From an uncultured Chloroflexia bacterium (GTDB taxonomy: Bacteria; Chloroflexota; Anaerolineae; CG2-30-64-16): DNA of 64,000 bases. The notes beneath the pieces are model-generated. The model did no database searches. It was not told the origin of the DNA and worked only from the letters and a program-made list of their open reading frames with translations. Of this stretch, positions 25,398 through 64,000 are shown piece after piece. The stretch lies in contig CAWAOA010000005.1 of NCBI GenBank assembly GCA_963783655.1, positions 95,331-159,330 on the forward strand. The letters run 5' to 3'. The stretch's first letter is position 1; every line of letters starts with the position of its first letter. Both the position numbers and the translations under genes were made by a program.

Positions 25398-25426
25398 TGC
25401 AAACGCTCCTCCGGGGATGACTGTAG

Positions 25427-25443
25427 GGGGCGGGTGACCCGCC
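25427..25443. repeat. GGGCGGG-TGA-CCCGCCC hairpin repeat; further copies at 35578-35594, 35807-35823 and 37303-37319
   Basis: Identical 17-19-nt stem-loop seen four times, each adjacent to MITE-like repeats. Confidence 0.7.
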
Positions 25444-25545
25444 CCGGGGCTCGCAATGCGACAAAATCACCGGGGCGCGGCGCGTGCGGGGCGCTGACGC
25501 GGCGCTCGGCACGTACGCCTTCGATGCGAGTTGGATGGGGCACGG

Positions 25546-25717
25546 GGCGTACTTCGACAGGCTCAGTATGGAGTAGTCAGTTGTAGGCAACGATGCGAAT
25601 GGTTCCGTCCATGGGCAGCGATGGAGCTCGGCACCCAAGTGCGGGGTTCCTGAACAGAACCATCTGCATCGTCGGTAACCCCTAACGCCTCCATCCTGAG
25701 CCTGTCGAAGGACGCCC
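25546..25717. repeat. MITE-like palindromic element of about 175 bp (copy A): terminal inverted repeats GGCGT(A/C)CTTCGA...CTCAG(T/G)ATGG and CCATCCTGAG...TCGAAGGACGCC around a palindromic core
   Basis: Shares the core GATGCGAATGGTTC(C/T)GTCC...GGCACCCAAGTGCGGGGTTCC...ACAGAACCAT with copies B, E and F. No coding capacity. Confidence 0.75.
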
Positions 25718-25784
25718 GGTGCAGCGCGACTCACTTCACCGCTAACCCTTGACAGAACCTCTCGCATTGTCGCATACAATCAAC

Positions 25785-34972: not shown

Positions 34973-35431
34973 ATGCTGACGATTCTCGACGACTACCTGG
35001 CGCAGCTTGCCGACCGGCACGCCGATATCGAGCAAGCGCTGGATGGGCTTCCGCCGGAGGCGCTGGATTGGACACCCGGCGCCGAGATGAACTCGCTGGC
35101 GGTGCTCGTCACGCACACAGCCGGGGCAGAGCGCTACTGGATCGGGGATGTGGCCGCGGGCCGGCCGTCGAGCCGCGACCGCGACGCCGAGTTCCGCGTG
35201 AGGGGCATCGAACCCGGCGCCTTGCTCGGCAAGCTCCGCGATAACCTGGCCTTCGCACGTCAGGCGCTCGAGCCGCTCACGCTTGGGGATCTCGAGGCGA
35301 CCCGCACCTCGGGCCGCGACGGGAGCGAGGTGACGGTGTTCCGGGCGTTGTCGCACGCGCTCGAGCACGCCGCGCTGCACGCGGGGCAGATCCAACTCAC
35401 ACGACAGCTCTGGGACCAGCGCGCGGCGTGA
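34973..35431 (+). CDS. DinB/DUF664-family (DinB_2) protein
   Basis: ...ALDWTPGAEMNSLAVLVTHTAGAERYWI... with the His triad of DinB_2. Confidence 0.65.
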   Translation: MLTILDDYLAQLADRHADIEQALDGLPPEALDWTPGAEMNSLAVLVTHTAGAERYWIGDVAAGRPSSRDRDAEFRVRGIEPGALLGKLRDNLAFARQALEPLTLGDLEATRTSGRDGSEVTVFRALSHALEHAALHAGQIQLTRQLWDQRAA

Positions 35432-35690
35432 GGGGCGGTCTGAGGGCCGCCTGATCGCCGTCTGAGCCGGGCTTGCCGCCGGCTGAAACGGGGCCACGAA
35501 CACCGGCTGAGCGATGCCGTGAACGCCAGCGCGGGTTGTGCTTTTGGCAGCGCACCCCGCGCTGGCGTTCCGATCGTAGGGGGCGGGTGACCCGCCCCGT
35601 GCCCCAATGCCACGCGATTTTCGGTGGGCGGCACGGGCGCGGCGGCCGGGATGCGGCGCCCCCGGCTTCGATGGGGGTTGCGAGGTCGAT

Positions 35691-35790
35691 GGGCGTCCTT
35701 CGTCAGGCTCAGGATGGAGTTGTTAGGGGTTACCATCGATGTGGGTGGTTCTGTTCAGGGACCCCGCGAGCATCAGGTCAGAGAGTTAGT
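35691..35790. repeat. degenerate/partial MITE-like element (left arm GGGCGTCCTTCGTCAGGCTCAGGATGGAG...)
   Basis: Left terminal inverted repeat and part of the core are present. The right arm is degenerate. Confidence 0.5.
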
Positions 35791-35823
35791 GGTGTTGTAT
35801 TGCAGGCACGGGGCGGGTGACCC

Positions 35824-37302
35824 ATACCTCATAGGTTAACGGGAATCAGGGTTTGTCAAGCATCGGATTTGCCCCCCTCTTCGTCCAGGGCCAGGCTCAC
35901 CTGCGTCAGCAGCGAGGGGCGGTCAGGGGCGCGGGCACGTTTGACGATGCCCAACAGCTTAGCCTCCTCGGCGAGAAACTGGGCGGCCGGGCCCTGAAAG
36001 GTGCCGGCCTGGGTGCGCACGGCGTAGTAATACAACATGCGGGACACCATCTCCAGCGAGATGCGCTCGAGCGGCAGCCCCAATTCCTCGGCCACCTCAT
36101 CGCCCAGATCGACCAAGACGGCGTAGTAGACCCAGGTGGCCCACACCTGCAGCTGCACGCCGTTGTTACTCCCCACCCACAGATATGACAGATCCAGCAG
36201 CCGCTTGACCAGCGCAAAGGCGCTCTCGATCTGCCAGCGCCTCTGGGAGACGGCCACCACTTCCAGCACCGAGAGCTGCTGCGGGTCGAGCACGTTGGTC
36301 AGGTAGCGGCGCCAGGCGCCGTCCACGTACACCTCGACCAGCCGCAGCGGGTGCTGCGAGCGGTGGGAGCGGTACCGGCCAAGCTGGACGATCTGATCGC
36401 GCACCTGCGGCTGCTGCCTCAGGCTCTGCCGCACAGTATAGCTGGTCTGCTCCCGCAGGCGGGTGACAAACCAGCTGCCCCTCTCCGTCAGGGCATCAAA
36501 GAAGCCAAAGGAGAAGTAGCCCAGATCGAAGACCAGCAGGCTGTTAGCGGGCAGCCAGGCCAGGAGCTGGGGCTGGAAGGCCTTGTCGTTGGTGGCCGGG
36601 TCCTCGCCAAACCAGATCTGGGCCGGCAGGTGGCTGAGCACATCCACCACCACCGCCAGGTGCCCACCCAAGGGCGCTTCCGGCACCTCGCGCAGCGCCT
36701 GCAGCTTGCGGAATAAGGCTTCCAGCGTGGTGCCATCCAAGGCGTAGCAGGCGGCGAAGCGCTGCGCCAGGCCGGCCAGCCGCGGCGGCAGCGGCCGCTG
36801 GCGGGCGGCGGCGCGGGCGGGCAGGGCGGCCAGCACCGTTTCCAGCACGCCCTGGAAGAGCTGGGCAGGGAAGGTGAGAAAGCGCTCGCTCAAAGCCGGT
36901 TGGCTGACCCGGAACGGTTGCGTCCACCCCACCCGTTCCTGCGCCAGCAAGCGCTGCAACTCACACACGCCCGCCAGATGCCGCCACAGCATGGCCAGCA
37001 CCACCGAGACCATCACCGGCAGGGTGAGCAGGCGGTTGCGCAGTCCCAACTGCCGGTAGTGCGCCATTTCGCTGTAGACGGCCGGTGCCACCAAATCTTG
37101 CAGCCGTTGTTCGATGGCAGCATCGCTGGGTGCCGGGGGGTGAACGCCGCCGGGCGTGATCTGGATCTCCCGCTGCTGCCGCGAACCGGCCGCTCCGTAG
37201 CCGCGGTTTGGCCCCGATTCGCATGTCCCTATCCTACGCCCCCACCGCCGGCGCCGCAAGCCCCCCCTTGACTCCCCCCTCTGTGCTTAACCTATGAGGT
37301 AT
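35824..37302 (-). mobile_element. IS4-family insertion sequence, 1479 bp, with 16-bp terminal inverted repeats ATACCTCATAGGTTAA / TTAACCTATGAGGTAT and an 11-bp target-site duplication GCGGGTGACCC
   Basis: Exact inverted ends at 35824-35839 and 37287-37302. The flanking 11-mers at 35813-35823 and 37303-37313 are identical. It contains one intact DDE transposase ORF. Confidence 0.8.
35856..37259 (-). CDS. IS4-family DDE transposase (467 aa, apparently intact)
   Basis: DDE_Tnp_1-like regions: ...LLVFDLGYFSFGFF...YRSHRSQHPLRLVEV...RWQIESAFALVKR... Confidence 0.85.
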   Translation of the reverse strand: MRRRRWGRRIGTCESGPNRGYGAAGSRQQREIQITPGGVHPPAPSDAAIEQRLQDLVAPAVYSEMAHYRQLGLRNRLLTLPVMVSVVLAMLWRHLAGVCELQRLLAQERVGWTQPFRVSQPALSERFLTFPAQLFQGVLETVLAALPARAAARQRPLPPRLAGLAQRFAACYALDGTTLEALFRKLQALREVPEAPLGGHLAVVVDVLSHLPAQIWFGEDPATNDKAFQPQLLAWLPANSLLVFDLGYFSFGFFDALTERGSWFVTRLREQTSYTVRQSLRQQPQVRDQIVQLGRYRSHRSQHPLRLVEVYVDGAWRRYLTNVLDPQQLSVLEVVAVSQRRWQIESAFALVKRLLDLSYLWVGSNNGVQLQVWATWVYYAVLVDLGDEVAEELGLPLERISLEMVSRMLYYYAVRTQAGTFQGPAAQFLAEEAKLLGIVKRARAPDRPSLLTQVSLALDEEGGKSDA

Positions 37303-37520
37303 GCGGGTGACCCGCCCCCTACGTCCGGAGCGGTGTACGCCCCTTAAGGCGTGATCTGGGAATCTACCAGACGACCCGCCCCATACGACAAGCGAAGTCT
37401 CGCCGTCCACAACACACCCGCCCCCTGCGTCCGGAGCGGTGTATGTCCCTTTGAGCGCAGCCTTCCCGTCTACCCGATGACCCGCTCCCTACGACAGCCC
37501 GAAGACGCGCCCCCCGTTCA
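37303..37520. repeat. about 3.5 degenerate tandem copies of a roughly 55-60-bp unit (GACCCGCCCCCTACGTCCGGAGCGGTGTACG...)
   Basis: Direct repeats visible at 37306, 37372, 37417 and 37478. Confidence 0.5.
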
Positions 37521-37641: not shown

Positions 37642-38076
37642 ATGTTGGCACCCACGGAGAAATTGATGCCGGACGTCACCGAATTCCTGTCTGATGTCGT
37701 CGCGTGGGCGCGGGATAGCGACGACGTCCTGGCCGTCGCGTTGGTGGGTTCGCAGGCTCGGGGCGCTGCGCGGGCGGATTCGGATGTGGATCTGGTGATC
37801 TTGCTGGGCGACCGGCAGCGCTATCTTGAGGATGCGGGCTGGACCGGGCAGTTCGGCACGGCGCTGAGCCTGGCACGCGAAGACTCGGGCGCGGTGCAAT
37901 CGCTGCGGGTGCGGTATGCGGACGGGCTCGAGGTGGAATTCGGGTTGGCGTCCGGCGAATGGGCCGCTACGGAACCTGTGGACGAAGGGACCCGGCGGGT
38001 CGCGGCGGACGGGCTGCGCATCCTTTTCGACCCCCACGGAAGGCTCGCACGGCTGATGGCCGCGATCGCGCGGTAA
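37642..38076 (+). CDS. nucleotidyltransferase-domain protein (Pol-beta-like NTase)
   Basis: ...LAVALVGSQARGAARADSDVDLVILL... (GS...D.D NTase motif). Confidence 0.55.
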   Translation: MLAPTEKLMPDVTEFLSDVVAWARDSDDVLAVALVGSQARGAARADSDVDLVILLGDRQRYLEDAGWTGQFGTALSLAREDSGAVQSLRVRYADGLEVEFGLASGEWAATEPVDEGTRRVAADGLRILFDPHGRLARLMAAIAR

Positions 38077-38130
38077 CGAGGAGCTACGATGAGCAAGGCG
38101 CGATCGCGCGGTAACGAGGAGCTACGATGA
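38057..38130. repeat. perfect tandem duplication of about 43 bp (GCGCGATCGCGCGGTAACGAGGAGCTACGATGAGCAAG x2) spanning the NTase stop and the RBS/start of the M24 peptidase gene
   Basis: Two identical copies back to back. The duplicated segment contains GAGGAG plus ATGAGCAAG. Confidence 0.7.
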
Positions 38131-39263
38131 GCAAGATAGGTATCGGCGCCGAGGAATACCGGGCGCGCATGGCTGCGCTCCAGGCGAGCCTGGCTGAGGA
38201 GGATCTGGACCTCTTCGTCGTGTCAGCCGAGGAATCGATCCAGTATCTGATCGGCGTCTCGTACCGGCCGCTGGAACGCCCTTTCTTTATCCTGGTCCGT
38301 CCTGCCGGTGACCCCGAGCTGCTGGTGCCCATGCTCGAGCGCGATCACCTCGCGCACGCCGCGTCGGTGGCCCGCGTGCACACCTATTGGGATTACCCCT
38401 CGCCGGCGGGGCAGGGTTGGGCTGAGCGGCTGTGCGAGCTGGCGGGCAACGCCGGCAACGCCGGCAGCGTGGGCATCGAGCCGAGCCTGCCGCAGGAGAT
38501 CGCCGGTGCGCTCGCAGAGTCGCGTCCACGGGCGGTCCCGCTGGTGGAGAGGCTGCGGCTGGTCAAGTCGCCGGCGGAGATCGCGATGCTGCGGCACGCG
38601 GCGCGCTATGCCGACATGGGGGTGGCGAAGGCGATCAAGGCGGCGTATTACGGCTGTTCCCTGCTCGAGCTCTTCAGCCAGGGCCGGTCCGTCCAGACGC
38701 AGATGATCAAGGAAGTGGGCTACGACGCGCTGCTGTCGAGCGTGCTGGCCGGAGCCTGGCCCGCGCCCGGGAGCGCGATGCCGCACGGCGTGCCGTCGGT
38801 CGGCACCCGGCTGAAGGATGGCCCGCACATTGCCCTGAGCCTGATGCGAGCGCTGGGTTACTGCGCCGAATGCGAGCGGACCTTCTTCCTCGCGCCGCCG
38901 ACGCCCGAGGTGCGGCGGGCGTTCGCAGCGATGACCGAAGCGCGCCGGCGGGCGTTTGCCGTGGTCCGGCCGGGCGCCACCTGCGAGGAAATTGACGTCG
39001 CGGCCAACGGCTTCCTGAAGTCGGAGGGCTACGGGCCCAACCTGCTCCATCGCACCGGTCACGGCTTTGGGCTGAGCACGCACGAAGGGCCGTGGGTAGC
39101 AGAGGGGTCAGACCAGGTGCTCGCGCCGGGGATGCTGATCAGCATCGAGCCGGGCATCTACATGCCGGGGACCGGCGGCGTGCGGCACTCCGATACCGTC
39201 CTTGTGACCGGGAGCGGCTACGATACCCTCACGCGTTACCCGACCGGCATCTCGAGAGCCTGA
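38127..39263 (+). CDS. M24-family metallopeptidase (Xaa-Pro aminopeptidase/creatinase-like), intact
   Basis: ...HRTGHGFGLSTHEGP...ISIEPGIY.... Intact 378-aa ORF. Confidence 0.8.
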   Translation: MSKIGIGAEEYRARMAALQASLAEEDLDLFVVSAEESIQYLIGVSYRPLERPFFILVRPAGDPELLVPMLERDHLAHAASVARVHTYWDYPSPAGQGWAERLCELAGNAGNAGSVGIEPSLPQEIAGALAESRPRAVPLVERLRLVKSPAEIAMLRHAARYADMGVAKAIKAAYYGCSLLELFSQGRSVQTQMIKEVGYDALLSSVLAGAWPAPGSAMPHGVPSVGTRLKDGPHIALSLMRALGYCAECERTFFLAPPTPEVRRAFAAMTEARRRAFAVVRPGATCEEIDVAANGFLKSEGYGPNLLHRTGHGFGLSTHEGPWVAEGSDQVLAPGMLISIEPGIYMPGTGGVRHSDTVLVTGSGYDTLTRYPTGISRA

Positions 39264-48349: not shown

Positions 48350-49040
48350 TTGCGGCTCCGCACTGACGGCGATCTGCGCTTGCCTTCCCCTTTACTACCG
48401 TAGCTGCAAAGCAGCCGGCGTTAACCCCAAACAGGATGCGGCAGGCTCTGCTTCCGGCAGCTTTGCTGTCGCTTGACCGGCAGCGCTGCGGGAAGCAGCG
48501 CGATCGCGGTGCCCGGGGCGCGGCGCGGGCGCGTGGCCAAAGGGCAGCGGCGCGGGTGCGCACCGGATGCTCCGCCGCCGGCTTCGACGCGAAGCAGGTG
48601 CGCGACGGGGCGTCCTTCGAGACCCTCAGGATGGCTGTGCTAATTGTTGCCACCAATGCAAATGCTGCGCTCCAGGAACCCCGCACTTGGGTGCCACAGA
48701 ATGTCGATGCCCCTTGACCCGAGCATCGGCTTCGGCGCCAACAATTAGCACAACCATCCTGAGGGTCTCGAAGGACGCCCCGTCGTACGGCCATCTCGCG
48801 TCGACGGCTGGGCAGTGCAAGAATCCCGTTAGCCTGTGAGGTCTGTGTCGCCGCGCCGCGGCCATCGCAATCGCGCTGCTTCCCGGCGCGTTGCCGGGTA
48901 CCGATGGCACGGTAACACGCGCCTCGCGGACTCCCGCGCAGGTTTGTGCAATGCGACAGCAAAGCTGCCGGAAGCAGACCTCGCCGCGTCCCGTTCGGGG
49001 TTAACGCCGGCTGCTTTGCAGCTACGGTATCAAGGGGGAA
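48350..49040. repeat. about 690-bp long inverted repeat (arms of about 160-240 bp) with MITE-like copy D (48607-48784) at its centre
   Basis: The left arm 48370-48530 is the reverse complement of 48840-49030 with few mismatches. Centre GGGGCGTCCTTCGAGACCCTCAGGATGG...CCATCCTGAGGGTCTCGAAGGACGCCCC. Confidence 0.75.
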
Positions 49041-63550: not shown

Positions 63551-63772
63551 TGATGTGAATTGGGTGAGCGACGGGCGTCCTTCGAGAACCTCAGGATGGT
63601 TGCGTAATTGTGGGCACCAATGCGAATGGTTCTGTCCGGGGTACCGACAGTCCGCGGCACCCAAGTGCGGGGTTCCGGGACAGAACCATTGCACATCGCT
63701 GGTAATCCCCTGACAACTCCATCCTGAGCGTTCTCGAAGGACGCCCCGTGGCCCGCCCAATTCACATCAGAG
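63551..63772. repeat. MITE-like palindromic element, copy E; the inverted arms extend beyond the 175-bp core (CCTGATGTGAATTGGGTGAGCG ... CGCCCAATTCACATCAGAG)
   Basis: Core GGGCGTCCTTCGAGAACCTCAGGATGG...CCATCCTGAGCGTTCTCGAAGGACGCCCC. Confidence 0.75.
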
Positions 63773-63831
63773 TCAGTCGCGCCGCTCACAACGGCTCGGC
63801 TACCATTGATGCGAGTCGGCTAGCCAGACGA

Positions 63832-64000
63832 GCGTACTTCGTCAGGCTCAGTATGGAGCAGAAAGTTGTGAGGCACCAGAGTAAAAGGTTCCGTCATGGG
63901 GCACCGGCAGGTTGTGGCATACACATGGTGCGGGGTTCCTGTACAGAACCGTTCACGCAGACGGCAACCTCTAACTACTCCATCCTGAGCGTGTCGAAGC
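63832..64000. repeat. MITE-like palindromic element, copy F (runs off the window end)
   Basis: GCGTACTTCGTCAGGCTCAGTATGGAG...CTCCATCCTGAGCGTGTCGAAGC. Confidence 0.7.

Follow-up and report, generated by a model that had tools for sequence, protein, structure and literature searches.

The 64-kb stretch of DNA analysed here (the window) carries at 35823-37303 a 1481-bp insertion sequence (IS) of the IS4 family, with IS231-like ends and a single DDE transposase, that has split a GC-rich hairpin in two. We are fairly confident that landing in GC-rich palindromes is a property of the branch to which this element belongs and not an accident of this copy. We observe directly the family membership, the terminal inverted repeats, a direct duplication no more than 1 bp away from the dyad of the target, and an enrichment of hairpin targets across the branch. 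The interrupted target, GGGGCGGGTGACCCGCCCC, is a GC-rich palindrome of 19 bp that is GTAG/CTAC-tagged and resembles a repetitive extragenic palindrome (REP). The element and the hairpins comprise the following features.

35823-37303, minus strand (that of the transposase): complete IS4-family insertion sequence, 1481 bp, with 17-bp perfect terminal inverted repeats; limits set from relatives
35823-35839, plus strand: terminal inverted repeat CATACCTCATAGGTTAA, low-coordinate end (3′ side of the transposase), a perfect match to the other arm
37287-37303, minus strand: terminal inverted repeat, high-coordinate end (5′ side of the transposase), with CATACCTCATAGGTTAA as its reverse complement
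35814-35822, plus strand: left copy of the most likely 9-bp target-site duplication, CGGGTGACC, from the 9-bp duplications in relatives
37304-37312, plus strand: right copy of the most likely 9-bp target-site duplication, CGGGTGACC, likewise from relatives
35810-35822, plus strand: left part of the interrupted hairpin, consisting of the 5′ stem GGGGCGGG, the loop TGA and then CC
37304-37322, plus strand: right part of the interrupted hairpin, consisting of the duplicated CGGGTGACC, the rest of the 3′ stem, CGCCCC, and the CTAC tag at 37319-37322
35576-35598, plus strand: intact GTAG-tagged hairpin, in the orientation opposite to the interrupted copy and about 211 bp from it
25423-25445, plus strand: second intact GTAG-tagged hairpin

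Excising the element together with one copy of the repeat regenerates GGGGCGGGTGACCCGCCCC, the same sequence as the free hairpins, and as single-stranded DNA the rebuilt site forms a stem of 8 bp with a loop of 3 nt at about -10.5 kcal/mol. The 11-mer GCGGGTGACCC adjoins both 16-bp arms of the element (35813-35823 and 37303-37313) and occurs elsewhere in the window only within the intact hairpins (25430 and 35583), giving four matches against 0.13 expected. With this 11-mer abutting both arms and excision restoring the hairpin, the insertion into a hairpin repeat with a perfect target duplication that the original prediction had proposed from the letters alone is borne out. The asymmetric loop reads TGA on the plus strand in both flank copies, and the repeat is therefore a direct target duplication and not an extension of the inverted repeat. 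The insertion lies within 1 bp of the dyad axis of the 19-bp palindrome. Two intact copies of the hairpin had been predicted at 25427 and 35578; both exist, at 25427-25445 and 35580-35598, where GTAG tags beginning at 25423 and 35576 are followed by GGGGCGGG-TGA-CCCGCCCC with the full 8-bp stem and 3-nt loop, and the core GGGCGGGTGACCCGCCC is intact at 25428-25444 and 35581-35597. Together the three hairpins make up about 57 bp of the window, so that the chance of a random hit is about 0.1%.

The hairpins fit the GTAG class of REPs, which combine a GTAG tag with a GC-rich stem of 6 to 9 bp and have been reported in Chloroflexi (PMC3733652). Each is a short GC-rich stem-loop with the tag at one end, and all three copies are extragenic: the interrupted copy and the copy at 35580 have a DinB/MST-family gene (34973-35431) on one side and a nucleotidyltransferase gene (about 37.6-38.08 kb) on the other, and the hairpin at 25427 comes after a stop codon. 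They have no T tract and hence are not terminator-like, and no Rfam family was found anywhere in the window. No Y1 transposase of the RAYT type was found among ten window open reading frames (ORFs) scanned against Pfam. The copy count in the window is three full hairpins and four CTAC-tagged half units; the latter, GACCCGCCCCCTACG and variants, lie at 37309-37493 with spacings of 64, 42 and 64 nt, which amounts to a 106-bp duplication, and the cluster opens with the interrupted hairpin as its first unit.

The evidence for target choice comes from relatives of the element. We sampled two loci of one Anaerolineae metagenome-assembled genome (MAG), which were the two that a genome-collection scan returned, along with 80 metagenome loci, 17 loci found by exact-protein look-up and five plasmid records (L numbers below). 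Close relatives were defined as those with a transposase at least 56% identical to that of the window, and those at 43-49% identity served as a distant comparison group. The clean cases among the close relatives all lie in GC-rich hairpins, mostly GTAG-tagged, with the duplication centred on the loop; the duplication is perfect in L002, L004 and L089 and has one or two mismatches in L001, L009, L018 and L086. Of the 27 distinct close-relative loci, 9 have a stem of 7 bp or more across the insertion site, compared with 0.45% of random control sites on the same contigs (binomial p 3e-15). The half-stem GGGGC, GGGCG or GGGAGG is present in 46 of 60 distinct close-relative flanks (77%), against a background of 8.9% and 6 of 89 (7%) in the distant relatives. 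The flank consensus of the close relatives has G at 62-78% at positions -16 to -14 and -12 and at 53-55% at -13 and -11, a pattern absent in the distant group; the resulting G run, 11-16 nt from the junction, appears on both sides in close relatives only. The distant relatives (43-49%) instead show clean 9-bp duplications in unrelated DNA.

The targeted hairpins vary in sequence and size with the host, from 19 nt with a 3-nt loop in the window to 22-24 nt with 4- to 6-nt loops in the relatives, and the G blocks lie nearer the junction in the window than in the relatives. What the targets have in common is the dyad, not a fixed spacing. Across the branch, elements with transposases of about 56-73% identity, from Anaerolineae-type genomes and many metagenomes, lie in the great majority of cases at the centre of GC-rich hairpins that are alike without being identical, whereas relatives of 41-49% identity insert into unrelated DNA, a distribution that suggests a switch of target from unrelated DNA to hairpin centres within one transposase lineage. 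The predicted preference for the hairpin thus holds in relatives from other genomes and metagenomes. The target hairpin of L009 (element at about 400-1990) is one half of a REP dimer made of two inverted GTAG hairpins 3 nt apart, which after removal of the element reads GTAGGGGCGCACCTGCGTGTGCGCCC AGA GGGCAGACACGCAGGTCTGCCCCTAC.

Several points weigh against a preference for palindromes as a branch property and against the details of its reconstruction. A single copy is inspectable in this genome, and the preference rests on the relatives and not on the element itself; a search with the adjacent M24 peptidase returned no close strain, the next best match being 85% identical on a 2-kb contig, and hence no empty site. 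Many relatives lie on metagenome contigs of 1.5-2.5 kb, the two flanks of which need not belong to one copy, and the half-stem motif was picked after inspection of the data. About a quarter of the close-relative flanks are not hairpin-like (e.g., L007 and L008), and the window insertion is itself 1 bp off the dyad. The hairpin copy count covers the 64-kb window and the Y1 scan covers ten ORFs. Finally, the duplication could still be 10 or 11 bp, with L002 and L089 giving 10 bp. The single inspectable copy, together with the flanks without a hairpin in close relatives (L007, L008 and one flank each of L011 and L023), would also be expected if the element had landed in the hairpin by chance, with no target preference beyond the usual weak IS4-family consensus. 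We regard such a chance landing as very unlikely, given that hairpins fill about 0.1% of the window, that independent insertions of relatives in other genomes lie repeatedly at hairpin centres and that the half-stem frequency in close-relative flanks far exceeds both the background and that of the distant clade (77% versus 9% and 7%).

Eight metagenome loci (L003, L006, L017, L028, L040, L052, L078 and L099) have flanks that are inverted copies of one another with no direct repeat. In L006, L028, L040 and L099 both outer sides bear the GTAG/CTAC tag; L003 bears it only on the right. These loci are mostly on short contigs; L003 is on a 58-kb contig and is harder to dismiss. Such flanks are what would be seen if the hairpin halves were outer parts of the element, in effect longer inverted repeats, and the free hairpins were footprints or miniature derivatives of it. 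This explanation is extremely improbable and was rejected, as the loop is duplicated directly and free hairpins exist: the flanks of the window, L002, L004 and L089 share a direct repeat that includes the asymmetric loop, removal of the element yields a hairpin identical to the free copies, loci with the same element differ in flank sequence, and the distant relatives stop exactly at CAT/ATG. In addition, the same right flank is joined to differing left flanks across samples (L095/L096; L086/L088/L092), which points to a joining of flanks that stem from different copies. The inverted flanks probably belong to different copies, inserted in hairpins of either orientation and joined through the repeated element body. 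The joining could be an effect of assembly or of recombination among copies, and it is to such recombination that the hybrid repeats of ISRm22 have been ascribed (PMC1525189). There is a small chance that the branch recognizes a hairpin or cruciform shape, or dyad symmetry, rather than a fixed sequence, in which case the inverted-flank loci would be real products and not assembly chimeras. Under shape recognition, they might arise when both halves of a REP dimer receive an insertion and recombination ensues, or when integration at a palindrome takes an unusual course.

Returning to a branch-wide preference for GC-rich palindromes, we envisage cut-and-paste transposition by analogy with Tn5, Tn10 and IS231A, in which a transposase dimer would join both 3′-ends of the element to target strands staggered by 9 bp. 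A two-fold symmetric transposition complex would likely prefer a dyad-symmetric target with GGGGCG/CGCCCC arms; Hallet et al. (1994) reportedly found the IS231A target consensus to be dyad-symmetric as well, GGG(N)5CCC. The copy in the window landed near the dyad of the 19-bp GTAG/CTAC-tagged palindrome, most likely with duplication of the nine bases CGGGTGACC, and the perfect repeats suggest that the insertion was fairly recent.

The limits of the element had been predicted as 35824-37302, with 16-bp perfect inverted repeats and an 11-bp duplication. The repeats are indeed perfect, with the 16-bp core ATACCTCATAGGTTAA at 35824-35839 on the plus strand and 37287-37302 on the minus strand (chance expectation of 0.03 matches with 3 mismatches allowed), but they are really 17 bp long, the arms as read being CATACCTCATAGGTTAA and TTAACCTATGAGGTATG. 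This additional base on each side makes the duplication readable as 9, 10 or 11 bp. Most likely, the element occupies 35823-37303 and the duplication is the 9-mer CGGGTGACC, an element start and a duplication length that we take from relatives with CAT...ATG ends and 9-bp duplications. Six metagenome loci have this arrangement (L031, L039, L051, L066, L073 and L080), and in complete plasmid records elements with 41-44% identical transposases are flanked by 9-bp duplications, several inside interrupted genes, with CAT...ATG ends in Nostoc and Chlorohelix and GAT...ATC ends in Calothrix. In the unambiguous sites of relatives the element always owns a base ahead of AT (CAT, TAT or GAT) and the duplication is 9-10 bp. 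Among relatives whose site discriminates between the readings, the closest is L001; its repeat is 10 bp with one mismatch if the terminal C/G is placed inside the element and 12 bp with three mismatches if it is placed outside. The close relatives L002 and L089, with symmetric ends, have 10-bp duplications, so that 9-10 bp is the safe figure for the branch. The IS231 subgroup has the end signature CAT-------AA--TAA and duplications of 10-12 bp (PMC2266710, Table 1), and the ends fall into register with this signature only when C35823 is taken as the first base of the element; CAT and TAA then align, positions 11-12 read AG where relatives have AA, and the G at position 12 is the single departure. 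Perfect 17-bp inverted repeats and a duplication of about one helical turn (9 bp, possibly 10-11) agree with the IS4 family.

The 11-mer looks duplicated because the 9-mer gains the terminal C and G of the element, which match the next bases of the palindrome, and these coincide because the target is a palindrome flanked by G...C. The caveat in the original prediction, that the 11-mer might belong to the inverted repeat and not to the target, therefore applies to two bases owned by the element; the remainder is target, with the TGA loop direct in both copies. An element of 35824-37302 with 16-bp repeats and an 11-bp duplication (or a 10-bp duplication and asymmetric ends) is unlikely. The exact identity of the 11-mer, IS4-family duplications of up to 13 bp (PMC2266710, Table 1) and the 10-bp figure in L002 and L089 would accommodate it, but the unambiguous relatives own the base before AT and duplicate 9-10 bp, the IS231-type signature comes into register only from C35823, and a palindromic target flanked by G...C often mimics one extra base per side. 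The lesson for annotation is that duplications in palindromic targets appear longer than they are.

Two of the plasmid records, L100 and L104, are from Nostoc sp. UHCC 0302 and Candidatus Chlorohelix allophototropha and carry distant relatives that made clean 9-bp duplications on entering a gene for a DNA cytosine methyltransferase and one for an ATP-binding protein; the annotation lists the halves of the interrupted genes separately. The 64-kb window contains no second copy and no protein-coding remnant of the element. The sequence CAGACCTCACAGGCTAACGGGATTC at 48822-48846 on the minus strand agrees with the insertion-sequence end at 19 of 25 bases and may be a solitary relic of such an end, with no transposase remnant nearby.

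The IS4-family identity given in the original prediction is upheld by two profile matches to the transposase, Pfam DDE_Tnp_1 (PF01609, E=1.7e-15) and NCBIfam NF033592 transpos_IS4_1 (173.3 bits against a cut-off of 115), and the element belongs to this family. The gene and the site of its lesion are as follows.

35856-37224, minus strand: transposase gene, 455 aa after removal of one G, frameshifted as sequenced, with the DDE triad present and Ser in place of the YREK tyrosine
37135-37140, no strand assigned: G6 homopolymer (C6 on the coding strand), the site of a 1-nt frameshift at which deletion of one G restores the alignment to homologues

The catalytic triad (D175, D245 and E345 in the numbering of the 467-aa ORF) is invariant in all sequences aligned there, out of 123, and R341 and K352 are conserved alongside it. 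The Y(2)R(3)E(6)K signature is incomplete in this copy, which reads S338-R341-E345-K352 with the codon TCC where TAC is expected. The tyrosine is present in 121 of 122 other sequences, including P0035 and P0121, and the sole other Ser belongs to the window's own gene call; judging from this alignment, the YREK motif is normal for the element type, from which this copy departs by a point change. The Tn5 mutant Y319A resolves hairpins poorly and has lost nearly all strand transfer (PMC2566895). The transposase ORF had also been described as one of the few long ones in the region free of frameshifts. Its first approximately 40 codons are out of frame and have no match to homologues, and the conserved N-terminus begins in an overlapping 87-aa ORF at 36961-37224. 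Removing one G from the G6 run gives a 455-aa protein, residues 1-447 of which align to residues 1-447 of P0002 at 74% identity. The homologues are single ORFs of 450-458 aa, and the gene here is not. A programmed frameshift was considered and rejected, since the homologues are single ORFs and the absence of such a frameshift is part of the definition of the IS4 family (PMC2266710). The shift in this copy is no design feature but reflects a lesion or an error in sequencing. No PDB sequence matched the transposase.

The protein collection holds three gene calls for the element, P0122 (the window's own) and P0035 and P0121 on other contigs of 189 and 26 kb, the latter two being 98% identical siblings of the window transposase. 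Each is truncated differently in a frameshift-type manner: the odd C-terminus of P0121 is reproduced by dropping one C from the C6 run at 35872-35877, and the N-terminus of P0035 implies a separate 1-nt indel (at about 36715). Three different truncations fit either a homopolymer-error-prone assembly or decaying copies. As sequenced, this copy has both a frameshift and Ser in place of a Tyr that Tn5 requires for the late steps of transposition, and is therefore either damaged or mis-sequenced. For the same reasons, the intact ORF invoked in the original prediction can be used neither as a sign of recent activity nor as an argument that other frameshifts in the window are genuine decay, and a long ORF is no proof of an intact transposase gene.

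Insertion into REP sequences was known by 2006 for members of the IS3, IS110, IS4 (ISRm22), IS256 and IS5 families (PMC1525189), and the window element is a further REP-inserting IS and not a new kind of system. A close precedent by description is ISRm22 of Sinorhizobium meliloti, an IS4-family DDE element all copies of which lie in REP palindromes, inserted at the palindrome axis (Tobes and Pareja 2006, PMC1525189). Some ISRm22 copies have hybrid, non-matching duplications (PMC1525189), a further point of likeness. ISRm22 differs in its 6-bp duplication, compared with 9 bp here, and in its host phylum and REP sequence; it has been placed in subgroup IS4Sa (PMC2266710), whereas the ends of the window element fit the IS231 signature. 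IS231A of Bacillus thuringiensis and its subgroup resemble the window element in the CAT-------AA--TAA end signature, a single transposase ORF and a documented insertion specificity. They generate duplications of 10-12 bp, against 9 (to 10) bp for the window element, and occur almost entirely in Firmicutes, whereas this element probably has a Chloroflexota host and lies in a tagged REP-like hairpin. IS1397/ISKpn1 of the IS3 family and IS621, ISPpu9 and ISPpu10 of the IS110 family also insert specifically within REP palindromes (PMC1525189; PMC12288879), but their transposase families and chemistry are different, and they leave a duplication of 2-3 bp or none. In the IS110 family, the recombinase is of the DEDD type and a bridge RNA directs it (PMC11208160). 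The hairpins themselves resemble the GTAG-tagged REP families, including GTAG-23 of Thermomicrobium roseum of the chloroflexus phylum (Di Nocera et al. 2013, PMC3733652), in the end tag, the GC-rich stem of 6-9 bp, the short loop, the extragenic location and the tendency to cluster, a likeness of general form.

REPs as landing pads for ISs have been documented almost only in Proteobacteria, and the habit now extends to a large, mostly metagenomic branch of the IS4 family. The host of the branch is probably Chloroflexota, where GTAG repeats are known but their interplay with transposons is not, and the nearest named relatives of the source genome are Anaerolineae MAGs. Close and distant relatives form a natural pair in which to look for the part of an IS4-type transposase that determines the choice of target.

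The window contains other repeats as well. A dispersed family of roughly 200-300 bp, distinct from the GTAG hairpin and without an Rfam match, lies at 25405-25720, 35558-35823 and 63650-64000. Its 21-mer TTCGWCAGGCTCAGNATGGAG occurs five times against zero expected, and the family has inverted arm pairs at 25553/25689 and 63838/63978. Two of the units (25.4 and 35.56 kb) share 76% identity, and both have the GTAG hairpin at their 5′ edge. Downstream of the element, a perfect 37-nt tandem duplication with a period of 38 (38061-38135) takes in the start of the M24 peptidase gene (38127-39263), with its ribosome-binding site and ATG; the product is 378 aa in the window and 394-397 aa in homologues.

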